Positions 1,024-62,056 of a stretch of 64,000 nt of DNA are shown here, piece after piece. The position numbers were made by a program, and so were the translations under genes. The stretch spans positions 68,194 to 132,193 of the forward strand of contig CAYZNT010000005.1 in NCBI GenBank assembly GCA_964479735.1. The letters are read 5' to 3'. Source of the stretch: an uncultured Clostridia bacterium (GTDB lineage Bacteria > Acidobacteriota > Aminicenantia > UBA2199). Every line of letters starts with the position of its first letter. Within the stretch, counting starts at the first letter, position 1. Under the pieces are notes generated by a model, which did not search any database, had not been told where the DNA came from, and saw only the letters and a program-made list of their open reading frames with translations.

Positions 1024-1105
<82 letters not shown>

Positions 1106-1119
1106 CGCCGCCCGGACCC

Positions 1120-2355: not shown

Positions 2356-3105
2356 ATGAGAAAAATCATTTTTGCCAATCGCAAGGGCGGAAGCGGAAAG
2401 ACAACCGTCGTGGTCAACATCGCCTTCCTGCTCGCGCAGAAACGGCGCCGCGTGCTGGTGATCGACCTCGATTCACAATCGCACTCCACCTTCTACCTGG
2501 GGGGCGCCCCCGACGTGTCCGCGCACACCCTGCAGGGGCTTCTCGACGGATCGGAGCCGTTGGCCGCGCTGGTCCAGCCGACCCGCCATGACCACCTCAG
2601 CCTGCTGCCCTCCACCCGCCACATCGCCGAGCTGAATGAGCGCATCGGCGAGCGCGTCACGTTTCTCGCCGAGGCGCTGGCCGGGGACCTGCCGTTCGAC
2701 TACGTGCTCATCGACCTGCCGCCCTCGCTGGAAAAGATCGTCCTGTGCGGGCTGATCGCCGCCGACGAGGTGCTCATTCCGCTTCAGACCCATTTTTTCC
2801 CGATGCAGGGGCTGGCCCAGCTGGTGCAGCTCGTTACCGAGATCAACCAGCGCTGGAACCCCGGATTGCGGATGAGCGGGATCATCCCCACCCTCTACAA
2901 CGAGCGCACCCGAATCCACCGCGGCGTCATCGACGAGGTCGAGCGGACTTTCGGCCGGAAAATGGTGCTGCCGGGCATCCCCTTCGACATCCGCCTGGCG
3001 GAAGCGCCCAGTTTCCGCGAGCCGATCGCCGTCTACGCGCCCCACAGCAACGCCGCGCGGGCATTCGCCACCCTGGCCGCCCGGATTCTGAGAATGGAGG
3101 CATGA
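2356..3105 (+). CDS. ParA/MinD-family P-loop ATPase (chemosensory-array partitioning type, ParC/PpfA-like)
   Basis: Deviant Walker A KGGSGKTT at the N-terminus and VIDLDSQ switch region. First gene of a che operon and 4 nt from the next ORF. Confidence 0.8.
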   Translation: MRKIIFANRKGGSGKTTVVVNIAFLLAQKRRRVLVIDLDSQSHSTFYLGGAPDVSAHTLQGLLDGSEPLAALVQPTRHDHLSLLPSTRHIAELNERIGERVTFLAEALAGDLPFDYVLIDLPPSLEKIVLCGLIAADEVLIPLQTHFFPMQGLAQLVQLVTEINQRWNPGLRMSGIIPTLYNERTRIHRGVIDEVERTFGRKMVLPGIPFDIRLAEAPSFREPIAVYAPHSNAARAFATLAARILRMEA

Positions 3106-3109
3106 CGGC

Positions 3110-3652
3110 ATGAAAGCCAGGAAAGGACTGGGCATGGGCATGCAGGACCTCCTGCGGTTGACCATGGGAGCGGAGCCGGAGGCCCCTGAGCGTCCTCCCA
3201 CCGGGACGGCAGCCCGGCGCCCCAAGCCGGCGGTTGGACGCAGGTCGCAAGCCGCAACACCCGTTCCGGCCGGGGACCCATCCGCCGCCCGTCGCCGGGA
3301 GCTCGAGGAAGAGAACGATCGCCTGCGCCGCCGGCTCGAGCTGGCGGAGGCTGCCGGCGGGGAACCGTCGCCTGCCGTGGACGGCGAGGCGCTCTACCTC
3401 GCCGCGCTGGGGGCATTGAAAGAGGGGAGGGCCGCCGAGGCCCTGAAACAGCTGCTGGTTTTGGTTCACTTCCAGCCCGGGCACGTCAAGGCGTGGAACA
3501 ACCTGGGCGTGGCGTTCTACGAACTGGGCCTGGGCGACGAGGCCGGCGCCGCGTTCCGGCGCGTGCTGGAACTGGAGCCGGATCACCCGGCGGCCCGTGA
3601 GAACCTGCTGGCACTCGAGGCCGGCCCGGAACCGACAGGAGGCGACTCATGA
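3110..3652 (+). CDS. TPR-repeat protein with N-terminal Ala/Pro/Arg-rich and coiled-coil segment
   Basis: Two to three TPR-like helical hairpins (AEALKQLLVLVHFQPGHVKAWNNLGVAFYELGLGDEAGAAFRRVLELEPDHPAA). Overlaps the downstream gene by 4 nt (ATGA). Confidence 0.7.
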   Translation: MKARKGLGMGMQDLLRLTMGAEPEAPERPPTGTAARRPKPAVGRRSQAATPVPAGDPSAARRRELEEENDRLRRRLELAEAAGGEPSPAVDGEALYLAALGALKEGRAAEALKQLLVLVHFQPGHVKAWNNLGVAFYELGLGDEAGAAFRRVLELEPDHPAARENLLALEAGPEPTGGDS

Positions 3653-5955
3653 GCGCAGGCACCCAGGTCCAGGCCGTGACGACGCCCCGGCCGGCGGAGG
3701 AGCAGGGCAGCGAAATCATGCTCGTGTCCTTCCGGCTGGGGACGGAGGAGTTCGGCATCGACATCGCCAAGGTGCAGGAGATCCTGCGCCTGCCGGACAT
3801 CACGCCCATTCCGCGCAGCCCGGAGCACCTCACCGGCATCACCAACATCCGCGGCTCCATCCTGCCGGTGATCAATGCCAAGATCCGGCTGAAATTGACC
3901 CATGGAGAGGCGGACGAGCGCAATCGCGTGCTGGTCGTCTCCCACGCCGGTTCGCTGACCGGGATGATCGTCGACGAGGTGCACGAGGTGATGCGCATCG
4001 ACAGCCGCAGCATCGAGCCGCCCCCGCCGGTGACGCGCGGCATCGACCGCTTTTTCCTCTCCGGCATCGTCAAGCTGGACGGGGAGCGGCTGGTGATGAT
4101 GCTCAACCTGGACGAGTTCCTGCACGTCGAGGTGCAGCGCCAGGAGTCCCAGCAGCTGACGAGCCGCGAGACCGCGGCGGCGGCGGAAGCCCAGGTCGTG
4201 CGCCAGGAGCAGCTGGTATCCTTCTTCCTGGGGACGGACGAGTTCGCGTTCGACATCGCCGCGGTGCACGAGATCATCCGCGCCCGCGAGATCACCGCGG
4301 TGCCCAATGTGCCCGATTTCGTGGTCGGCATCCAGACGTTGCGCGACACCATCCTGCCGGTGATCGACCTGCGTCGGATCGTGCAGAAGGAAGCGCTGGG
4401 AGAGGAGAGCCGGCAGCGCATCCGCCAGCTGATCGCCTCCCACGCGGAGTGGTCCGATGCCCTGGAACGGGCGGTGAAATCGGGGGTCCCCTTCGACAAG
4501 CCCGTCGATCCGCGCCAGTGCGCCCTGGGCCAGATGCTGGAAGACCGCCAGCGCGGTGTGGCCCTGTTGGGCAGCTCCCTGTTCGGCAAGCTCAACTCGC
4601 GCATCCGCCCGCCGCACAACCGCCTGCACGACAGCGCCCGGCAGGCGATGCAGTGGGCGGCGGGTGAACAGGAACGGGTCCGCGAGGGAGTCGTGGAAGT
4701 GAATCGCTCCGCGCAAAGCCAGGTGACGGACATCTTGGAAGAGGCCCACGTCCAGGTGCTGGACTCCCTGCGCCGCGAACAGAAGGTTCTCGTCGTCGAA
4801 AGCCGCGGTACCACGTTCGGGCTGCTGGTCGATCGCATCAACGAGGTCCTCCGCATCGCCGCCGACAGCATCGACTCGACGCCGGCGCTGATCTCCGGGT
4901 ACGGACGCGAGCTCAAGGGAGTGGCCAAGCTCGACGGCGGCGGCCGCCTGATCATGATGCTGGACGAGCATGCGGTCATCAGCCAGCAGGAGGCGGAGGC
5001 GCTGTCGCAGATCGGCGAGCACGAGAAGCGGGGAGCCCAGAAAAAGACGGAGCAGGTGGACAAGAGCCAGCTGGTGGTCTTCACCATCCACGGTGAGGAG
5101 TTCGGCGTCGCCATCGACCGCGTGCGGGAGATCTTCAAGATCAGCGACATCACCCCGGTTCCCAAGGCCCCGGAATTCGTGGCCGGCCTGACCAACCTGC
5201 GCGGCACCATCATCCCGGTCATCAACGTGCGGCGCCGTTTCGGAATGGTCGACGTGCAGCGCGAGTTCCACGATACGCTGGCGGAGGTCGATCGGCGATT
5301 CCAGGGCCTGCGCCAGGCCCTGCAGGCGGCGATGGCCACCGGCGCTTTCGACGAGGCGCGCCGGGTGGTGGAGCACGCCGAGCTGGGGTCGTTCCTCGAC
5401 GGATTCCAAACCACCAACGACGGCCTCTCCCGCCGCGTCGCCGAGTTGCAGGCGATGTTTCTCGACCTCCAGGCCGAGATTCTCAAGAGCGTGCAGATGA
5501 GCGGCCGCAACCGGGACCGCGGCCAGGAGCTGTTCGACGGCCCGGTGCAGGCTGACATCGCCCGTTTCGAGGCGCACCTTCAGGCGGCCCGGGCGAGCAG
5601 CGGCACCGACCTGCTGCGCGAGGAGAAGATCCTGGTGGTCGCCGCCTCGGGGCTGGCCATCGGCCTCCTGGTGGACAGCGTCCACGAAGTCGTGTCGGTC
5701 CCGCTCTCGGCCATCGAGCCGACTCCCGACCTGGTGCTCGACCAGGTGGAGTCCGCCTACCTGGACGGCATCGCCAAGCTGAACCACGGACAGCGCATGA
5801 TCCTGCTGCTGAACATCGACGAGATCCTCTCCAAGGCGCAGTTCGAGAAGCTGCTCAAGCTGCAAGTCGGGGCCGAAGCGGAAGCGGCCGGGGCTCCGTC
5901 CCCGGCCACCGCCCCGCGCCGCGAACCCCGGCGCAAGCTGAAGATCGAGGAGTGA
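3649..5955 (+). CDS. penta-CheW-domain scaffold protein with embedded CZB-like zinc-binding motif
   Basis: Five CheW-like segments (approx aa 24-160, 187-250, 379-445, 474-532, 660-730), e.g. LVSFRLGTEEFGIDIAKVQEI, LVSFFLGTDEFAFDIAAVHEI, LVVFTIHGEEFGVAIDRVREI. Between domains 2 and 3 lies HAEW-x22-CALGQM-x26-HNRLH, matching the chemoreceptor zinc-binding (CZB) motif. Confidence 0.85.
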   Translation: MSAGTQVQAVTTPRPAEEQGSEIMLVSFRLGTEEFGIDIAKVQEILRLPDITPIPRSPEHLTGITNIRGSILPVINAKIRLKLTHGEADERNRVLVVSHAGSLTGMIVDEVHEVMRIDSRSIEPPPPVTRGIDRFFLSGIVKLDGERLVMMLNLDEFLHVEVQRQESQQLTSRETAAAAEAQVVRQEQLVSFFLGTDEFAFDIAAVHEIIRAREITAVPNVPDFVVGIQTLRDTILPVIDLRRIVQKEALGEESRQRIRQLIASHAEWSDALERAVKSGVPFDKPVDPRQCALGQMLEDRQRGVALLGSSLFGKLNSRIRPPHNRLHDSARQAMQWAAGEQERVREGVVEVNRSAQSQVTDILEEAHVQVLDSLRREQKVLVVESRGTTFGLLVDRINEVLRIAADSIDSTPALISGYGRELKGVAKLDGGGRLIMMLDEHAVISQQEAEALSQIGEHEKRGAQKKTEQVDKSQLVVFTIHGEEFGVAIDRVREIFKISDITPVPKAPEFVAGLTNLRGTIIPVINVRRRFGMVDVQREFHDTLAEVDRRFQGLRQALQAAMATGAFDEARRVVEHAELGSFLDGFQTTNDGLSRRVAELQAMFLDLQAEILKSVQMSGRNRDRGQELFDGPVQADIARFEAHLQAARASSGTDLLREEKILVVAASGLAIGLLVDSVHEVVSVPLSAIEPTPDLVLDQVESAYLDGIAKLNHGQRMILLLNIDEILSKAQFEKLLKLQVGAEAEAAGAPSPATAPRREPRRKLKIEE

Positions 5956-5962
5956 GCAGCGG

Positions 5963-7072
5963 ATGAGCGCCGCGGCCGAACGCGCACCGATCCGGGTGCT
6001 GGTCTGCGACGATTCGGCCCTCATCCGCATGGCCCTGAAACGGATGATCGAGAACGACGCCGAGCTCTGCTACGCGGGCTTCGCCCGCGACGGCGAGGAT
6101 GCGGTGGAGAAGGCCCGCCAGCTGAGGCCCGACGTGATCGTCATGGACGTGGTCATGCCCCGCATGGACGGAATCGCCGCCTTGCGCGAGATCGTCGCCC
6201 AGAAACCCGCCCCCCCGGTGATCATCTTCTCCTCCTCGACGACCGAGGGCGCGGAGCGGACCATCGAGGCCATCGAACAGGGCGCTTTCGACTGCGTGGC
6301 GAAGCCGCGCGGCATGGAGAGCCTGGCGGCGCTGGAGCGAGAGATCGTGGACAAGATCAAGAGCGCGGCCGGGTCCGTCCCGGGACCGGGCGCGCCGGCT
6401 CCGGTCCGGGCCGCCCCTGCGCGCCCCGAGAGCCGGCCGTCCCTGCCGGCCCGCCGGCCCGGCGAGCGCGGGAACTACCCCTTCAAGGCCGTCGCCCTGG
6501 GCATCTCCACCGGCGGTCCGAAGTCCATCTTCGAGGTGCTGCCGCTCTTGCCGGCCGGACTGCCGGCAGCGGTGATCGTCGTGCAGCACATGCCGCCCGA
6601 ATTCACCGGCGCGTTCGCCAAGCGCATCCACAGCCGCACCCGCATGCCCTGTGTCGAATCGGAGGCGGGCATGGCCATCCAGCCCGGCCACATCTACGTC
6701 GCCCGCGGAGGATACCACTTCAAGCTGCTCAGCCGGCCGGGACGGGAACTGCTGGTCCGCCAGACCACGGAACCCAAGCACCTGTTCATGCCGTCCGTAG
6801 ACGTGATGATGGAGGCGGTGCTGGAGTGCTTCCGCGCCGACACCGTCGGCGTGCTGATGACCGGCATGGGGTGGGACGGCGCCGCTGGCATGCTCAAGAT
6901 CCACCAGCAGGGCGGCGTCACCATCGCCGAGAGCGAGGAGACGGCCATCGTGTTCGGCATGCCCCAGGAGGCGATCCGGCGGGGCGGGGCCCAGGTGGTC
7001 GCGCCCCACCGGCGGATCGCGGAGGAAATCGTGCGGGGCGTGAATGCCTGCCCCGAAGAGGGAGTCCCATGA
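5963..7072 (+). CDS. cheB: chemotaxis response regulator protein-glutamate methylesterase
   Basis: N-terminal receiver (IRVLVCDDSALIR...DVIVMDVVMPRMDG) plus C-terminal CheB methylesterase (GISTGGP, VVQHMPPEFT). Confidence 0.95.
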   Translation: MSAAAERAPIRVLVCDDSALIRMALKRMIENDAELCYAGFARDGEDAVEKARQLRPDVIVMDVVMPRMDGIAALREIVAQKPAPPVIIFSSSTTEGAERTIEAIEQGAFDCVAKPRGMESLAALEREIVDKIKSAAGSVPGPGAPAPVRAAPARPESRPSLPARRPGERGNYPFKAVALGISTGGPKSIFEVLPLLPAGLPAAVIVVQHMPPEFTGAFAKRIHSRTRMPCVESEAGMAIQPGHIYVARGGYHFKLLSRPGRELLVRQTTEPKHLFMPSVDVMMEAVLECFRADTVGVLMTGMGWDGAAGMLKIHQQGGVTIAESEETAIVFGMPQEAIRRGGAQVVAPHRRIAEEIVRGVNACPEEGVP

Positions 7073-8154
7073 CCAACGAGGAATGGAAGGAAACTCTGCG
7101 CGTGCTTCGTGTGGGCAGCCCCGAGAACAAGCTGGCGCTGCTGGACGAGTTGCAGAAGACGGCGGACGGCTCCATGGTCGAGCCGCTGGTGGAGATCCTC
7201 GAGGCGGAGCGCAACCGGGCGGTCAAGGAACGGGTGTTCCTGGTTCTGAGCCGGGCGCTGCCGGAGGGCCACTTCGCATCCATCGACCGGCTGCTGCGCT
7301 CCGCCGACCCGTTCGTGCGCAACGGCGCGGTCGAGATCATCAAGCGCAACGACATTCCGCTGATCCAGTTCTTCGAGAAACTGGCCGAGGACGAGAACAA
7401 GGACGTGCGCAAGTTCGTCATCGACGCCTTGTCCCAGGAGCGCACGCCGAAGTCGATCGACATCATCCGCCGCCGGCTGACCGACCCCGACGTCAACATC
7501 GTCTACACGGCCATCGAGTACCTCGGCAATTTCCGTGACCGGGACTCCGTGGGGGCCATCGAGGAAGCGTTGTTCGCGACGGACCGGACCATGGTGATCT
7601 GCGCCGCCCTGGAAGCGCTGGCCAAGATCGGCGTCAGCAATCGCCGGGCCGAGGTCATGGCGAAGTTCTCGCCCAGCACCGACACGCTGCTGATCTTCTC
7701 CATGCTGAAGTACCTGGAGTCGTTCGGCACCGTGGACGACATCGCCTACATCGAGTCGATGCTGGTCGACAAGGTCGGGACCTGCCTGAAGGAAATGATC
7801 GACGCCCTGGACGGCATCCTCGGCCGCACCCAGACCGACGTGCCTGTCTCCCTGCGCGAGCAGTTCGCCCGGGTGCTCGATCTCGGCATCAACCAGGTCG
7901 ACCGGTACGCCATCAACAAGCTGCTGGCGCGCGGCGAGGGGGGAGACTCCCTGGAGCGGGCCCGGAAGCAGCTGGAGGAGGAGGACGTGATGGCCCGGCT
8001 GTCGGCCGTCGAGATCATCGCCGAAAAGGGAGACGCGGACGACATCCCCCGCCTGGAGGAGATCGCCGGCGAAACCGACAGCGACGAGCTGCTGGAGGCG
8101 ATCGGCGACGCGGTGATGAAGATCCGCGATCGGCATTCCGACGGCGGGGGGTGA
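7069..8154 (+). CDS. HEAT/PBS-lyase-like repeat protein
   Basis: Tandem ~30-aa HEAT-like repeats (DPFVRNGAVEIIKRN, NKDVRKFVIDALSQ, DPDVNIVYTAIEYLG, MARLSAVEIIAEKG). Start ATG overlaps the cheB stop (ATGA), indicating translational coupling inside the che operon. Confidence 0.75.
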   Translation: MTNEEWKETLRVLRVGSPENKLALLDELQKTADGSMVEPLVEILEAERNRAVKERVFLVLSRALPEGHFASIDRLLRSADPFVRNGAVEIIKRNDIPLIQFFEKLAEDENKDVRKFVIDALSQERTPKSIDIIRRRLTDPDVNIVYTAIEYLGNFRDRDSVGAIEEALFATDRTMVICAALEALAKIGVSNRRAEVMAKFSPSTDTLLIFSMLKYLESFGTVDDIAYIESMLVDKVGTCLKEMIDALDGILGRTQTDVPVSLREQFARVLDLGINQVDRYAINKLLARGEGGDSLERARKQLEEEDVMARLSAVEIIAEKGDADDIPRLEEIAGETDSDELLEAIGDAVMKIRDRHSDGGG

Positions 8155-8157
8155 GGC

Positions 8158-8991
8158 ATGGAACTCACGGTCGAGGACTTCATCAAGTTCCGGAACCTGA
8201 TCTACGAGAAGGCCGGGCTCTACTTCGAAACCAAGAAGATCTACTTCGTTCACAAGCGGCTGGAGAACCGCGTACTGGCGCTCAACCTGCCCTCCTACGA
8301 CGAGTACCTGAACCGCCTCAAGTTCCAAGACCGCAGCGGAGAGGAGATGCAGAACCTGATCAACCAGCTGACCACGAACGAGACCTATTTCTTCCGCGAG
8401 TACAACCAGATGCAGGTGTTCGTCTCCGATTGCCTGGGCGAGGTCCGCGAGCGAAAGCTGAAGGCCGGCGACCGCACGCTGCGCATCTGGTCGGCCGGCT
8501 GTTCGTCGGGCGAGGAGGCCTACACGCTGGCCATCCTGCTGCTCGAAAACCTGAAGGACCGCCTGTTGTGGACCTTCGACATTTTCGGCTCCGACATCGA
8601 CACCGAGATCCTGCGGCGGGCGCGCGAGGCGAGCTACAACGAGCGATCGGTCAAGGACGTGCCCCCGCCGCTGCTGGCCAAGTATTTCCAGCCCGTCCCG
8701 GGCGGATTCAACCTGCTTCCCGCCGTGAAGTCGATGGTCAGCTTCCGCCACCTCAACCTGTTCGACGCCGCCCAGATGCGGCAGATCAAGGGCGTCGACT
8801 TCATCTTCTGCCGCAACGTGCTGATCTATTTCGACGACATGTCGCGCAAGGCGGTGGTGGCCAGCTTCTACGACAGCCTGAATCCCGGCGGCTACATCTA
8901 TCTCGGGCACGCCGAATCCGTCAGCCGCATCAACACGGCGTTCGCGATCAAGCGCATGGGCGGCCTGATCGTCCACCAGAAACCGGAGTAG
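8158..8991 (+). CDS. cheR: chemotaxis protein methyltransferase
   Basis: CheR N-terminal helical domain plus SAM-binding motifs (RIWSAGCSSGEEAYTLAILL, FDIFGSDIDTEIL, IFCRNVLIYFD). Confidence 0.95.
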   Translation: MELTVEDFIKFRNLIYEKAGLYFETKKIYFVHKRLENRVLALNLPSYDEYLNRLKFQDRSGEEMQNLINQLTTNETYFFREYNQMQVFVSDCLGEVRERKLKAGDRTLRIWSAGCSSGEEAYTLAILLLENLKDRLLWTFDIFGSDIDTEILRRAREASYNERSVKDVPPPLLAKYFQPVPGGFNLLPAVKSMVSFRHLNLFDAAQMRQIKGVDFIFCRNVLIYFDDMSRKAVVASFYDSLNPGGYIYLGHAESVSRINTAFAIKRMGGLIVHQKPE

Positions 8992-9000
8992 GAGAATCCC

Positions 9001-9372
9001 ATGGCCAAGAAGATCCTGATCGTTGACGATTCGGAGATGGTCCGCAACTACCATTACTACATCCTGAAAAACGCCGGGTTCGCCGTCGTCTCGGCCATCG
9101 ACGGCGCGGACGGGCTGGAGAAGATGTTCCAGATACCGGGGATCGACCTGATCGTCACCGACATCAACATGCCCAACATGGACGGCTACACGATGGTCGA
9201 GCGCATTCGCGAGCACCGCGAATTCGAGAAGGTCCCCATCGTCATCATATCCACCGAATCGGAGGCCCACGACAAGCAGCGCGGCTTCGATGCCGGCGCC
9301 GACGTCTACATCGTCAAGCCCATCGAGCCCAACGCCCTCATCGAGAACATCAAGCTGCTGCTGGGGATTTGA
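9001..9372 (+). CDS. cheY: chemotaxis single-domain response regulator
   Basis: 123-aa receiver: DD pair (LIVDDSEMV), phospho-acceptor Asp (LIVTDINMP), conserved Lys (IVKP). Confidence 0.95.
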   Translation: MAKKILIVDDSEMVRNYHYYILKNAGFAVVSAIDGADGLEKMFQIPGIDLIVTDINMPNMDGYTMVERIREHREFEKVPIVIISTESEAHDKQRGFDAGADVYIVKPIEPNALIENIKLLLGI

Positions 9373-24821: not shown

Positions 24822-25073
24822 GGCGGAGTTTATAGCATCCGCGCCCGGGAGAGTCAAGGAAAGCGCCGGACCACTTGTCCAGTCGTCGCATCTCGCTGGA
24901 AGCGTTTCATGCAGCCCCGAACAGGCTTTCAACCCCCTTTTTCCAGAAAAAAAGCAATGGAATCGAAGCGGATAACGCTCATCCGCAGGAAAAGATACGC
25001 CGGCACCTGAATGGCATTCTCAGTTCCGTGCAAATTGGCTAGAATAGTCGTGAACGTATCGAAGGAGAGACAC

Positions 25074-27725
25074 ATGAACTGGCACCAGTTCGAAGCGGCG
25101 GATGTTCTGCTGGCGATGGAGTCTTCAGGACATGGGCTGACGGAAGCCGAAGCCCGCGATCGTCTGCAGCAATACGGCCCCAACAAGCTCGCCGAGGAAG
25201 AGCGCATTGGCAGGCTGAAAATTGTTCTTCACCAGTTCGCGAGTCCCTTGATATACATATTGCTGCTGGCGGCGGTCGTCACCTTCTTCCTGCAAGAATT
25301 CATTGATACCGGAGTCATTCTGGCGGTCGTCGGTCTCAACGCCGTCATCGGCTATACGCAGGAATACAAGGCGGAGCAGGGAGTGAGGGCGCTCAAGAGG
25401 CTCCTCGTCTCAAAAGCGAGGGTGGTCAGGGATGGCCACGAGAAGGAGATCGATGGGGCGGAACTGGTCCCCGGCGACGTCGTGTTGCTCGCTTCAGGGG
25501 CGCGGGCTCCAGCCGATCTCAGGCTTTTGCATGTCAATGAGTTGCGCGTGGATGAGGCGATGTTGACGGGAGAGTCGCTGCCCGTGGAGAAGAAGATCCA
25601 CGCCATCGCGGATGAGAACATTACCCCTGCCGACCAGATCAACATGGCCTTCATGGGCACGGCCGTGGTGAACGGACGGGCCCGCGGCGTCGTGGTCGCA
25701 ACCGGCAGCAAATCCGTTCTGGGACAGATCGCCGGAGACGTCCGCGACATCGGCGCAACCAAGGCGCCGGTTCAGGAGAAAATCGAGAGACTCGCCAGGA
25801 TCGTCGGCATGTACGTCATGGCGGCATCAGCCGCCCTCTTCGGAGTGGGCCTCGCGCTGGGAGAGAACGCAACGGAGATGTTCATGGTGGCCGTCGCAAC
25901 CGCCGTGGCCGCCATCCCGGAAGGTCTGCCGATCGTGGTCACTATCGCCATGGCGGTCGGGGTCGCGCGCATGGCCAAGAACCATGCCATCATCAGAAAG
26001 CTCGCGGCGGTGGAAACCCTCGGCAGCACAACGGTCATCTGCTCCGACAAGACCGGCACCCTCACGAAGAATGAAATGACGGTAACCAGCGTTTACGATG
26101 GCAAGACCGCCTATTCGGTCAGCGGCATCGGGTATGAGCCGGCGGGCGGGATAATCGCGGAGGGGGGAGACATGGCCGGCAGCGATGCCGAAGCCCTCCG
26201 CAGGCTGCTCCGGATCGGTCTGCTTTGCAACGAATCCGACCTCTATGAGGTGGAGGGGAGATACAAGGTCGACGGAGATCCCACCGAGGGCGCGTTGATC
26301 GTGTCAGCCTTGAAAGGCGGGCTTGCATGCGAGGATGAGAAAGCCCGTCATGAGCAGGTCGCGATGGTCCCCTTCGAGTCGGAGCGCGGTTTCATGGCCA
26401 CGCTCAACCGGAGCGAGGGGGGCAATGTCGTGTATGTGAAAGGCGCCCCCGAACGGGTGGTCGGCATGGCGGGGGATGACCCGTCGGTGAAAGAAGAATA
26501 CCTGCGGCAGGCCCGGGAGCTTGCATCGAAGGGCATGAGGGTGCTGGCTTTTGCCTGGAAGCCAGTGGCAGCCGACGTGGACGAGCTCAGCCACCACGAC
26601 GCCGAGACCGGGTTGACCCTTGCCGGATTGCAGGGCATGATCGATCCGCCGAGACCGGAGGTGATCGAAGCGATCCGGGGCTGCCGCAAAGCGGGCATCC
26701 GGGTGGTGATGATCACCGGAGATCACGCGGACACGGCGGCGGCCATCGGCCGCGAGCTTGGCATCGTCGAGGGCGATCCGGCCGTTCTCACCGGCCGGGA
26801 GCTCGAGGCCATGAGCGACGACGAACTCTATGAAACGATCCAGAGGGTTCCCGTCTACGCCAGGGTGGCGCCGGACCAAAAGCTTCGCATTACCCGGCAG
26901 CTGAAACGGCGTGGGGAGATTGTTGCGATGACCGGGGACGGCGTGAATGACGCCCCGGCGCTCAAGGCCGCGCACCTGGGCATCGCCATGGGAATCACGG
27001 GCACCGATGTGGCCAAAGAGGCGTCGGACATGATTCTGGCGGACGACAACTTTGCCAACATATTCAAGGCCGTTCGCGAAGGCAGGATTGTGTTTGACAA
27101 CCTGCGCAAGGCGATATTCTTCCTTCTGCCAACCGGCCTGGCGGCCATCCTTTCGATACTGGCCGCAATGATTCTCGATGTCCCGATTCCCTACCTGGCC
27201 GCCCAGCTGCTCTGGGTAAACCTCGTGACCAACGGGCTCCAGGATGTGGCGTTGGCGTTCGAACCGGGAGAGAAGGGAATCATCGATCGGAAGCCCCGCG
27301 ATCCGCATGAGGGAATCCTGTCGAGGCTGCTTTTCGAGCGAATGCTGCTGATCGGAATCGTCATCGCCGCCGGTGTGATCTACGCGTACCTCCGGGCGCT
27401 CCACAGCGGCGGTTCCGTCGAGCATGCGCGCACCGTGGCGGTCACCACCATGGTTTTCTTCCAGTTCTTCCAGGCCTGGAATTCCCGCTCCGAGCATGCG
27501 TCGGTTCTTTCCATGAATCCGCTCGGCAACAAGTTTCTTTTCTACAGCATGATCGCGGCCGCCCTGGCCCAGATCGCCTTCATTTTCGCGCCGCCCCTGC
27601 AGTGGGTCTTCCGGACGGAGGCGATCACCCATGCCGATCTCGCTCACATCGTTGCGGTGGCGTTTTCGGTCGTGGTGGTGGTTGAGGTGGACAAATGGCT
27701 CAGGCGGCGGAAAGCGGCCGCTTGA
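25074..27725 (+). CDS. P-type cation-transporting ATPase (type II, Ca2+/Mg2+-like)
   Basis: DKTGTLT phosphorylation site, TGES, MTGDGVNDAPAL, 10-TM topology. GGAGAG lies before the ATG. GC content and codon use (TTG, ATA, AAA) are visibly lower than in neighbouring genes. Confidence 0.9.
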   Translation: MNWHQFEAADVLLAMESSGHGLTEAEARDRLQQYGPNKLAEEERIGRLKIVLHQFASPLIYILLLAAVVTFFLQEFIDTGVILAVVGLNAVIGYTQEYKAEQGVRALKRLLVSKARVVRDGHEKEIDGAELVPGDVVLLASGARAPADLRLLHVNELRVDEAMLTGESLPVEKKIHAIADENITPADQINMAFMGTAVVNGRARGVVVATGSKSVLGQIAGDVRDIGATKAPVQEKIERLARIVGMYVMAASAALFGVGLALGENATEMFMVAVATAVAAIPEGLPIVVTIAMAVGVARMAKNHAIIRKLAAVETLGSTTVICSDKTGTLTKNEMTVTSVYDGKTAYSVSGIGYEPAGGIIAEGGDMAGSDAEALRRLLRIGLLCNESDLYEVEGRYKVDGDPTEGALIVSALKGGLACEDEKARHEQVAMVPFESERGFMATLNRSEGGNVVYVKGAPERVVGMAGDDPSVKEEYLRQARELASKGMRVLAFAWKPVAADVDELSHHDAETGLTLAGLQGMIDPPRPEVIEAIRGCRKAGIRVVMITGDHADTAAAIGRELGIVEGDPAVLTGRELEAMSDDELYETIQRVPVYARVAPDQKLRITRQLKRRGEIVAMTGDGVNDAPALKAAHLGIAMGITGTDVAKEASDMILADDNFANIFKAVREGRIVFDNLRKAIFFLLPTGLAAILSILAAMILDVPIPYLAAQLLWVNLVTNGLQDVALAFEPGEKGIIDRKPRDPHEGILSRLLFERMLLIGIVIAAGVIYAYLRALHSGGSVEHARTVAVTTMVFFQFFQAWNSRSEHASVLSMNPLGNKFLFYSMIAAALAQIAFIFAPPLQWVFRTEAITHADLAHIVAVAFSVVVVVEVDKWLRRRKAAA

Positions 27726-41417: not shown

Positions 41418-41489
41418 CAGCCCGTAGGGGAGTCGAACCCCTCTTCTAAGATTGAAAATCTTATGTCCTAACCGATAGACGAACGGGCC
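41418..41489 (-). tRNA. tRNA-Glu (anticodon TTC)
   Basis: Reverse complement GGCCCGT TC GTC TATCGGTTAG GAC A TAAGA TTTTCAA TCTTA GAAG AGGGG TTCGACT CCCCT ACGGGCT G. The 3-bp D-stem and TTC anticodon match the bacterial tRNA-Glu layout. Confidence 0.8.
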
Positions 41490-41493
41490 TCTC

Positions 41494-41566
41494 TGAGCCG
41501 TGCTGGATTCGAACCAGCGGCACCCGCCTTAAAAGGGCGGTGCTCTGCCAGCTGAGCTAACGGCCC
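41494..41566 (-). tRNA. tRNA-Lys (anticodon TTT)
   Basis: Reverse complement GGGCCGT TAGCTCAGCTGGCAGAGC A CCGCC CTTTTAA GGCGG GTGCC GCTGG TTCGAAT CCAGC ACGGCTC A. Sits 4 nt from tRNA-Glu. Confidence 0.85.
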
Positions 41567-41679
41567 ATCCTTGGCGCTTGGAAATGTACCATACTGGAGT
41601 CGCCGTGTCAATGGGCGCCCGCCCGACGCGGGCGAACCGGCCGGCGGCCGGAACGTTCCGCCGCCGGCCGGAATGGAGG

Positions 41680-42465: not shown

Positions 42466-42774
42466 TTATGGCTGCAGGTGAGGCAGGAACTTCTCCTTCC
42501 GGGGAACGGAATTGAAACGCGCCACTTCCAGCCCATCGCGAAAGAGGATCAGGGTGGGCACGCCCAGCACGAAGAAGCGCTGCGCCACGGCCGGCTCCTC
42601 GACGATGTCGAGGGTGAATACGGCCGGTTTCGGATCGGGCAGGGACGCGAGCAGCTCCTCCAGCTGGGCGGGGACTTTCTTGCAGGGAGCGCAGCCGGGA
42701 GAGCCGAAATCGAGAATGACGTGACGGGAGGAGCGCAGGTCCTGCTCCAGGGTTGCAGTTCCGGTCTTGTTCAC
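42466..42774 (-). CDS. trxA: thioredoxin
   Basis: [13 protein letters not shown] active site and thioredoxin fold length (102 aa). Overlaps the upstream tlpA-like gene by 4 nt. Confidence 0.85.
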
Positions 42775-44003
42775 GGTTTTTCCTCCAGCAGTTCTTCCGC
42801 CTGCCGGTTCAGGGCGGCGATGGCGGTGGCACCGGTGGCCAGTTGGCGGACGATGCCCTGACGGTCGATGAGGGCCAGGGTCGGCAGGGCGGTCACGTGG
42901 AACGCGGCGAAGGTTCCGCCCTGGCGGTCAACGGCCAGCGGGTAGGAGATGCCGTGGCGCCTGGCGAAGTCTCGGATGAGGGCCGTCTCTTCGTCCGGCT
43001 TGACCGCGCCCCGGCTGCCCCTGTCGTCCGCGTAATTCCCGTACAGCCTGGTCAGTCCGACCACCACCAGGCCGCGGCCGGCGAGATCGCGGGCCATCCG
43101 GGAGACTGACGGCATGCTGTCGCGGCAGGGCTGGCACCAGGGGGCCCAGAAGTTGACGAGCACCACCCGGCCCCTCAGGTTGGCCGGAGACGGCGGCGGA
43201 CCATTGAGCCAGAGATCGATGCTCCAGGGCAGGGCGGGTTTGCCGATCTGCTCGAGTTGACCGAGTTCGCCGCGCAGCCAGTCGGACTCGAGCGGATCGC
43301 GGGCCGCTCCGAGCTCCTGGCGCATGAGCTCGAGGGCGCCGGTCAGGTCTCCATGGAGTCGGGCGGAATGGGCCAGGCTGGCGATGAGCCGGGGCCGGCT
43401 GGCCTGGAACTCCGCCGGCAGATCGCCGGCGGCCATTAGCCGTCGGCTGAACTCGCGCCGGACATCCGCCGGCTCCGCTTCCATCGCGAAGTACATCATG
43501 AAGCTGAAATAGTGAGGGTCGCGCGGCACCGCCCGGTCGATCTGCCGGAACAGGGCCAGCGCCTCGGGCAGCTGGCGGCGGACGATGTGGATCTTGATCT
43601 TCTCGAATCGGGCCGCGGATGAATGCGGGGAGCCCTTCGCCGCCAGGGCGTCCAGCAGGTTCCCGGCCTCGTCGAAGCGGTCCAGCTCCAGCAGGGCGCG
43701 TCCCCGCAGCAGCGTGAGTTCATCGCCGCCCGGGGCGTCGGCGAAACGGTTTAGCAGGTTCTCCACTTCTCGACGGTGGTCTTTCTGCAGGCGGTTGTAC
43801 TCGTCGCGCAGGCGGACGAAATCGGGCTGGCTGGCCGCCCGGAGCATCCCGGCCGACAGTTCACGGCTCTGGTCGGCATGCTTGCCGGTGATCGCGCCGT
43901 AGGCGTCAGCGAACGCCCGGGTTTTCTCGCGCGTGTCGTTGCGGGTGCAGGAGACGGCGAGCAGCAGGCTGCAGGCCAGCAGGCTCAACGTCGTCTTGCT
44001 CAT
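42771..44003 (-). CDS. TlpA-like thiol:disulfide oxidoreductase lipoprotein with N-terminal TPR-like helical domain
   Basis: Lipoprotein signal [20 protein letters not shown]-terminal redoxin domain [16 protein letters not shown]. Confidence 0.82.
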
Positions 44004-44158
44004 GCTTCCTCCCCGGAACGAGGCAGACCGCCCCATTGTATCACAGCCGGTGGCGGCGGCAAAAACGGGGACGGCCAGGCGGGGCCGCCCGTATTGCTTT
44101 TTGTTCCCTGATGGCTTATAAATGGAAGGTGCAATCCAACCACCCAGCGAGGTCATGA

Positions 44159-60307: not shown

Positions 60308-61705
<1,398 letters not shown>

Positions 61706-62056
61706 CGAGGGGAGGAAAGTCCGGGCTTCACCGGGAAAGGATGGCCCCTAACGGGGGCATCCCGGCGCGAGACGCCGGGAATGGACAGTGTCACAGAGAA
61801 CAGACTGCCCACCTGCGGCGCGAGCGGCAGAGGCGATGGTGAAAAGGTGAGGTAAGAGCTCACCGTCACGCCCGGCGACGGGCGGGACTGAGACAAACCC
61901 CATCCGAAGCAAGGCTAAACAAGGGGCGCTTGAGGAATTCCCGGCCGATGCCCCTGGGTTAGCTGCTCGAACCCGCCGGCAACGGCGGGGCCAGACAAAT
62001 GGTTCCTCCAGACAGAACCCGGCTTACAGTCCGCTGCCGGTTGCCAGGAGACGCCG

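Follow-up and report, generated by a model that had tools for sequence, protein, structure and literature searches.

A CZB domain nested in the middle CheW domain of a triple-CheW scaffold, a candidate zinc/redox input to an F9-type chemosensory array

The CZB (chemoreceptor zinc-binding) domain is known from the diguanylate cyclase DgcZ of Escherichia coli and the chemoreceptor TlpD of Helicobacter pylori, where a His3Cys zinc site makes the domain rigid. When the Cys that holds the zinc is oxidized to Cys-SOH, the alpha2-alpha3 region unfolds, the affinity for zinc drops and the metal is released, and the change reaches both terminal helices, which link the CZB to the regulated domain (PMC8262984). 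Proteins combining CheW and CZB make up 1.4% of the CZB proteins (Perkins et al. 2021, PMC8262984), and the combination is also listed as a known architecture by Muok et al. 2023 (PMC10653840); in both papers the class is drawn as a list of domains, its nesting is not described and no member is characterized experimentally, and the supplements of the former contain no CheW listing. Triple-CheW proteins, together with DosM, a receptor with a double signalling domain, are the signature components of the F9 class of chemosensory pathways (PMC9321776), and CheW3 of Vibrio cholerae (VC1402) builds the baseplates in the two-layered cytoplasmic arrays that also contain DosM (PMC7534058, PMC9321776). 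Sensor fusion to CheW has a further precedent in CheWS (CheW-CheR-like) of Treponema denticola, whose input arrives through the baseplate instead of through a receptor (PMC10653840). Here we describe a 768-residue CheW3 encoded in a 64,000-nucleotide stretch (hereafter the window; contig CAYZNT010000005.1, positions 68,194 to 132,193, of assembly GCA_964479735.1) from an uncultured bacterium placed by GTDB in the Acidobacteriota (Aminicenantia, UBA2199), in which a CZB domain with a complete set of putative zinc ligands is nested inside the second of three CheW domains.

Residues 265-327 of CheW3 (nt 4441-4629) read HAEW-x22-CALGQM-x26-HNRLH, and direct reading of the codons returns exactly the residues and coordinates given in an earlier note on this DNA. 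The fit to the published CZB consensus claimed there also holds: the strict expression (Hxx[WFYL]-x21-28-Cx[LFMVI]Gx[WFLVIM]-x18-27-HxxxH) matches once, at aa 265-327, in a six-frame translation of the whole window, and is matched by 0 of 100,000 composition-preserving shuffles of CheW3. The profile search proposed as a check came out above threshold as well, since Pfam PF13682 (CZB) aligns along its whole length (profile positions 1-64 of 64) with aa 265-334, scoring 32.4 bits for the whole protein and 36.4 bits for the isolated fragment at a gathering cut-off of 29.4 bits. C291 is the only Cys of the protein, which also contains 2 Trp and 18 His. The residue following it is Ala (C-A-L-G), as in the CheW-CZB subgroup, distinguished by Ala or poor conservation at this position, where chemoreceptor CZBs typically carry Arg (PMC8262984).

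In isolation the insert is confidently predicted to fold as a four-helix bundle (predicted local distance difference test, pLDDT, 88.9; predicted template modelling score, pTM, 0.83), with C291 at the N-terminus of a short second helix, and the predicted bundle superposes on the DgcZ CZB structure 3T9O with 2.6 A over 113 of 120 residues at only 12% sequence identity. A profile built from the inserts, run against 1.84 billion representative proteins, retrieved 3,700 of them at E up to 1e-3, the top matches being methyl-accepting chemotaxis proteins (MCPs) with tandem canonical CZB domains (E down to 4e-50). Judged by motif and profile, the insert is a genuine CZB domain with the His3Cys motif H265, C291, H323 and H327 as its putative zinc site. 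That the motif could instead have arisen by chance, or be a relic that has lost its function and has no metal site, is an idea that might appeal to the whole-protein Pfam score, a mere 3 bits above the cut-off, and to the missing sequence-level link with solved CZB structures, as PDB searches with the CheW3 fragment and with a 12-sequence profile gave no CZB match, just weak coiled-coil noise. We nevertheless consider it highly improbable: the Pfam match spans the full length of the profile, the ligands are invariant across orthologues that are about 23% identical, and ligand conservation, the shuffle test and the retrieval of canonical CZB proteins together led us to reject a chance motif. 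Among the best matches of the insert profile are P0121, P0131, P0133 and others, which are MCPs or shorter proteins that carry 3-6 CZB domains in tandem in one chain; P0121 (1,028 aa), for example, shows five Pfam CZB stretches upstream of its MCP signalling domain.

Concerning the scaffold, Pfam CheW matches the protein in five stretches (Table 1), and the earlier note had described five CheW domains with the CZB lying between two separate ones. Stretches 2 and 3, and likewise 4 and 5, are however complementary halves of the profile (1-70 and 66-137; 1-60 and 66-137), hence they represent one intact and two split domains, and the count of five was rejected. The full-length AlphaFold2 (AF2) model, built with 78 homologues (mean pLDDT 85.1), also displays three beta-barrel modules plus two helical bundles, with helices 250-278, 292-301, 309-336 and 341-377 (DSSP assignment) projecting from CheW domain 2. 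Profile mapping and model thus agree that CheW3 has three CheW domains, and that the CZB is nested inside the second and does not stand between domains. For comparison the three domains were set against the sequence of E. coli CheW, which agrees in residue identity with every position quoted in a review (PMC13098124). Both inserts fall between N85 and T86 of E. coli CheW, replacing the beta5-beta6 loop (residues 73-85), and K378, V379 and L380 of CheW3 align with T86, V87 and V88. R62 and T86/V87/V88 are among the receptor-interface determinants of E. coli CheW, and I33, V36, E38, G57, R62, G99, V108 and G133 are receptor- or CheA-contact sites (PMC13098124); equivalents of these eight positions are kept in all three CheW3 domains.

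We propose, with a probability of roughly 0.6, that the zinc/redox CZB in CheW domain 2 serves as an accessory cytoplasmic input that acts through the baseplate of a receptor-containing array. By analogy with DgcZ and TlpD, the site would bind Zn2+ tightly and so keep the bundle rigid, while oxidation of the Cys thiolate, or loss of zinc, would unfold the short helix around the Cys and loosen the terminal helices. The first and last helices of the bundle join without a break onto beta5 and beta6 of CheW, the strands that carry the equivalents of R62 and T86-V88; because both termini are anchored in CheW domain 2 in this way, a rigid-to-loose switch would be expected to distort either the receptor/CheA coupling surface or the lattice of CheW rings, and thereby to alter CheA output. 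The CZB would add to the receptors and not replace them. Such an input would make sense in F9 arrays, since 98% of the DosM homologues have no sensor domain, for which reason further sensory inputs are expected for these arrays (PMC9321776); a sensor built into the scaffold would be a sensible additional one. The F9 survey, which found CZB on two DosM homologues and reports none on CheW3, comes to the conclusion that the input must be provided by additional sensory proteins (PMC9321776). A CheW3 with a built-in CZB is a concrete candidate for that role. The bolder statement that the baseplate CZB is the missing sensory input of F9-type arrays, with the scaffold reading the zinc or redox state and relaying it to CheA by way of CheW geometry, thus bypassing the ligand-binding domains of receptors, is put forward only tentatively, and we regard it as somewhat unlikely.

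The family to which the protein belongs bears directly on this proposal. At least 183 CheW3 homologues are detectable, and the 120 of them that were listed are all multi-CheW proteins, 508-768 aa long; most come from metagenome-assembled Desulfobacterota, KSB1 and Planctomycetota. In domain 2, 67 of the 78 aligned relatives have a homologous insert of some 125 aa, the other 11 showing little or no insert at this place, and all four ligands are kept in just 11 of those 67. Inserts with and without ligands align with each other over all 127 columns (hhalign probability 99.8%, E 4.8e-30), so that at the level of their profiles they are unambiguously homologous. Ligand conservation was judged on 12-13 ligand-bearing CheW3 sequences (alignments A2 and A3). 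Although the 12 ligand-bearing orthologous inserts share no more than 20-29% identity with that of the window, W268, L272, F282, P288, C291, L297, H323 and H327 are invariant among them, and H265, G294 and P322 are conserved in at least 90%. W268, L272 and F282 are moreover conserved whatever the ligand state. In a neighbour-joining tree computed from the CheW columns only, and carrying no support values, ligand-bearing proteins are paraphyletic and basal with the ligand-less clades nested within them, a topology which suggests an ancestral functional CZB whose ligands were lost several times, and which should be taken as indicative only. The closest syntenic relative of the window, P0003 (GCA_964457225.1), has lost both the Cys and the HxxxH motif, and the CZB profile does not match it even at E up to 1; the gene order ParA-TPR-CheW3-CheB-HEAT-CheR-CheY-CheA-GlgC-peptidase is the same in both genomes.

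These observations also nourish the main rival to a sensory input, according to which the insert is mainly architectural (for example a spacer, a dimerisation element or a lattice contact) and the zinc a static structural cofactor left over from an ancestral CZB. The insert is far more widespread than its ligands and clearly homologous with or without them, W268, L272 and F282 are kept independently of the metal site, the syntenic sister dispensed with Cys and HxxxH while its operon stayed unchanged, and the equivalent loop of domain 3 holds a second helical insert free of ligands. On the other side, the ligands, where they are kept, are the most conserved positions of a very divergent domain, and this shows that the metal site itself is under selection; the basal, paraphyletic placement of ligand-bearing forms in the neighbour-joining tree points to long-lived retention; and the CZB zinc-thiolate was reactive in both systems assayed, DgcZ and TlpD (PMC8262984). 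Weighing both sides, we hold a mainly architectural role to be rather unlikely, if clearly the most serious of the alternatives. The family offers in this respect a natural experiment, since one and the same insert is found both with its zinc ligands and devoid of them, in some cases in the genomes of syntenic sisters, and a comparison of ligand-bearing with ligand-less members could show how much of what the bundle does is structural and how much is sensing.

The insert of domain 3, of about 120 aa, comprises five helices in the AF2 model (536-564, 567-575, 578-585, 591-618 and 622-649) and was found just in the window protein, in P0003 and in P0004. A second, degenerate CZB copy had been proposed in this region. 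The helical insert is real, whereas the register proposed for it is not, and its status as a copy is less clear: Pfam gives no match, BLASTP against the first insert yields E 25, and hhalign against the profile of ligand-bearing inserts a probability of 2%, while the profile of all 67 domain-2 inserts raises this to 69.6% (E 4.2e-5). In the hhalign register C291 stands opposite A577 and H265 opposite F551, none of the four ligand positions being kept. The insert is possibly a very diverged, metal-free CZB-like copy, a reading with weak support from these comparisons.

The genes around cheW3 form a chemosensory operon (Table 1). The CheB product retains its catalytic-triad motifs STGGP, QHMP and GMGWDG, and CheA shows, besides the N-terminal Hpt with the motif FRPIHTIKGTSS, a second Hpt at aa ~190-230 (30 bits vs a cut-off of 24.6) with the motif FRSLHSIKGNTG. 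For the F9 class the published table gives the order DosM W3 B. R Y A in 72 species, V. cholerae among them (PMC9321776, S6 Table), and the window order, W3-B-HEAT-R-Y-A, equals it minus DosM; the HEAT-repeat gene was found in every related locus examined. By gene content and order, this is probably an F9-type chemosensory pathway. Upstream, a ParA/MinD-like gene and a TPR gene precede cheW3 both in the window and in the sister locus L006 (L006:8843-9996); the pair is also present in L007 (L007:5271-6415), in which the interval up to cheW3 is occupied by an Hsp70/MreB-like gene and a DosM-like gene. By analogy with ParC and PpfA elsewhere, this pair may position or partition the array.

Which receptors would feed this array is the point where the window departs from its relatives. 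The MCP signalling-tip motif occurs in no frame of the 64 kb, the scanned window genes, apart from the chemosensory ones, are housekeeping genes and contain no MCP domain, and no DosM receptor with two tandem signalling domains was found there, so that an MCP hidden elsewhere in the window was rejected after both the tip-motif search and the gene scans came back empty. The sister locus L006 likewise shows no MCP within 10 kb. In 6 of the 7 ligand-bearing loci examined, by contrast, an MCP gene lies immediately upstream of the scaffold gene, the window being the exception. P0011, P0036 and L009 have in this place a soluble DosM-like MCP that is some 645 aa long and has two signalling tips (the precomputed Pfam annotation gives no match for the DosM-like genes of L007 and L008), and P0002, P0005, P0007 and P0010 (loci L005, L089, L090 and L091), the closest ligand-bearing relatives, have a transmembrane-type dCache_1/HAMP MCP upstream and CheV downstream. 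Two of these four loci lack cheB, and the branch may build membrane-bound rather than cytoplasmic arrays. An MCP precedes the CheW3 gene in L010, L011 and L012 as well. It should be noted that the related-locus search with the 13-sequence alignment used generic CheW patterns and gave mostly ordinary CheW loci, the informative ones being L009-L013.

The earlier note had rightly stated that the operon contains no MCP, and had taken this to suggest that the scaffold itself is the sensor, which could pass on a conformational change caused by zinc or oxidants directly to CheA. The first part extends to all 64 kb; the second overstates the case. The empty window and the MCP-free surroundings of L006 do speak for a pathway with no receptors, and so does the second helical insert, gained by this sub-clade alone. 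Yet cheB and cheR are intact, with strong full-length Pfam matches, and would be left with no substrate; MCP genes stand next to the scaffold gene in all but one of the ligand-bearing loci examined and in L009-L012; and the receptor-contact residues are conserved in each of the three CheW domains. MCP genes are commonly scattered across genomes, and our view is limited to 64 kb. The state of cheB and cheR leads one to expect a methyl-accepting substrate, and the most parsimonious expectation, from gene content, is that it is encoded elsewhere in the genome. We therefore find it improbable that the CZB of CheW3 is the sole sensor; the extreme form of this idea, in which the window sub-clade, with no adjacent receptor gene and two inserts, runs with no dedicated receptor at all, is if anything slightly less probable still. 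An accessory input that adds to receptors encoded at other sites is the reading that we prefer.

The nesting itself is not a peculiarity of long scaffolds. Many of the best 150 representative matches of the insert profile are proteins of just 236-294 aa with the N-terminal half of a CheW domain at ~5-75, CZB at ~80-160 and the C-terminal CheW half at ~190-270, and such short single-domain proteins (e.g. P0159, P0190, P0215 and P0227) carry the complete CZB motif in the same CheW loop. Since they are nested identically, the catalogued CheW-CZB class is, by this profile layout and at least largely, a CheW whose beta5-beta6 loop site hosts a CZB. As nested inserts split the domain that hosts them, they inflate domain counts, of which the five CheW domains first ascribed to the window protein are an example. 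The quadruple-CheW ('W4') adaptors listed for Paludibaculum fermentans and Thermosulfuriphilus ammonigenes (PMC9321776, S6 Table) might be CheW3 proteins with one split domain counted twice.

Table 1. Coordinates of the features discussed (window numbering unless a locus is named; Pfam profile positions and scores as found).
Feature	Position	Strand	Evidence or remark
cheW3, 768-aa scaffold, three CheW domains, two broken by helical inserts	3649..5955	+	Open reading frame; Pfam CheW 312 bits, 5 stretches resolved into 3 domains
CheW domain 1, aa 25-159, uninterrupted	3721..4125	+	Pfam CheW positions 2-135 of 138, 130 bits
CheW domain 2, N-terminal half, aa 188-257	4210..4419	+	Pfam CheW positions 1-70 only; R232 aligns with E. 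coli CheW R62
CZB four-helix bundle, aa 246-378, predicted in beta5-beta6 loop of CheW domain 2	4384..4782	+	Pfam CZB part: aa 265-334, nt 4441-4650
H265, putative zinc ligand 1, helix 1 (HAEW)	4441..4443	+	Codon cac; at least 90% conserved among ligand-bearing inserts
C291, putative zinc-thiolate/redox-reactive ligand (CALGQM)	4519..4521	+	Codon tgc; invariant in alignments A2 and A3
H323 and H327 (HNRLH), putative zinc ligands 3 and 4	4615..4629	+	Codons cac 4615-4617 and 4627-4629; invariant in A2 and A3
CheW domain 2, C-terminal half, aa 375-447	4771..4989	+	Pfam CheW positions 66-137
CheW domain 3, N-terminal half, aa 474-533	5068..5247	+	Pfam CheW positions 1-60
Second helical insert, ~120 aa, aa 534-656, equivalent loop of CheW domain 3	5248..5616	+	No Pfam match; AF2 helices; no ligands
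CheW domain 3, C-terminal half, aa 656-730	5614..5838	+	Pfam CheW positions 66-137
ParA/MinD-like ATPase gene, upstream of TPR gene and cheW3	2356..3105	+	Pfam AAA_31, CbiA, MipZ, ParA; same position in L006, L007
TPR protein gene	3110..3652	+	Pfam TPR families; stop overlaps cheW3 start (ATGA); present in L006, L007
cheB, receiver and methylesterase	5963..7072	+	Pfam CheB_methylest 191.9 bits, profile 1-174 of 174; Response_reg
HEAT-repeat protein gene	7069..8154	+	Pfam HEAT_2; matches unnamed '.' gene of published F9 order
cheR	8158..8991	+	Pfam CheR and CheR_N
cheY	9001..9372	+	Pfam Response_reg
cheA, two Hpt, dimerisation, HATPase_c, CheW-like P5	9375..11918	+	Pfam
DosM-like soluble MCP gene	L007:8051-9976		Two complete signalling hairpin tips, no sensor domain, next to cheW3
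DosM-like soluble MCP gene	L008:8014-9957		Two complete signalling hairpin tips, no sensor domain, next to cheW3
DosM-like soluble MCP gene	L009:7968-9950		Two complete signalling hairpin tips, no sensor domain, next to cheW3
tRNA-Leu	1024-1106		
P-type cation ATPase	25011-27725	+	
tRNA-Glu/tRNA-Lys pair	41418-41567		
TPR-AhpC/TSA (thiol peroxidase-like) fusion protein	42771-44156	-	
Bacterial class A RNase P RNA	61672-62042		234.9 bits

Because the window is 67% G+C, many long open reading frames on both strands are spurious, two antisense frames across cheW3 (690 aa and 815 aa) among them.

The CheW-CZB architecture and the triple CheW are both already known (PMC8262984, PMC10653840, PMC9321776). 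The literature compared does not describe that the CZB is nested in the CheW fold, nor that it sits in the middle domain of an F9-type CheW3; the ligand-less derivatives, widespread as they are, the second insert and the operon without a receptor gene seen in the window sub-clade are likewise absent from it.

Compared with the CheW-CZB proteins, the window protein shares CheW and CZB in one polypeptide, the complete His3Cys motif and the Ala after the Cys, and, with the single-domain members, the insertion of the CZB between CheW profile positions ~65 and 66. It differs in having three CheW domains, with a CZB in the middle one only and a ligand-free insert in the third, and in being encoded in an F9-type operon. 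With the F9 scaffold VC1402 it has in common the three CheW domains and the order CheW3-CheB-(unnamed gene)-CheR-CheY-CheA, and its orthologues adjoin DosM-like receptors with two signalling tips, as in F9; in contrast to F9, the window has no dosM beside cheW3 but ParA-like and TPR genes instead, and the closest ligand-bearing relatives of the protein pair with dCache-HAMP MCPs and not with DosM.

The CZB itself belongs to the same Pfam family, and shows the same ligand pattern, as those of DgcZ and TlpD. In these two proteins, however, the domain is terminal, with a single connection to the GGDEF or MCP domain, whereas that of CheW3 is tied at both ends into a CheW beta-barrel. CheWS resembles CheW3 in that a sensor domain is fused to CheW, and it is the precedent for input through the baseplate; its sensor is nevertheless unrelated (an S-adenosylmethionine-binding CheR-like domain), its fusion is terminal and its class is F2. 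If the role proposed here is true, CheW3-CZB would be the second example, after CheWS, of a signal that enters a chemosensory array via its baseplate.

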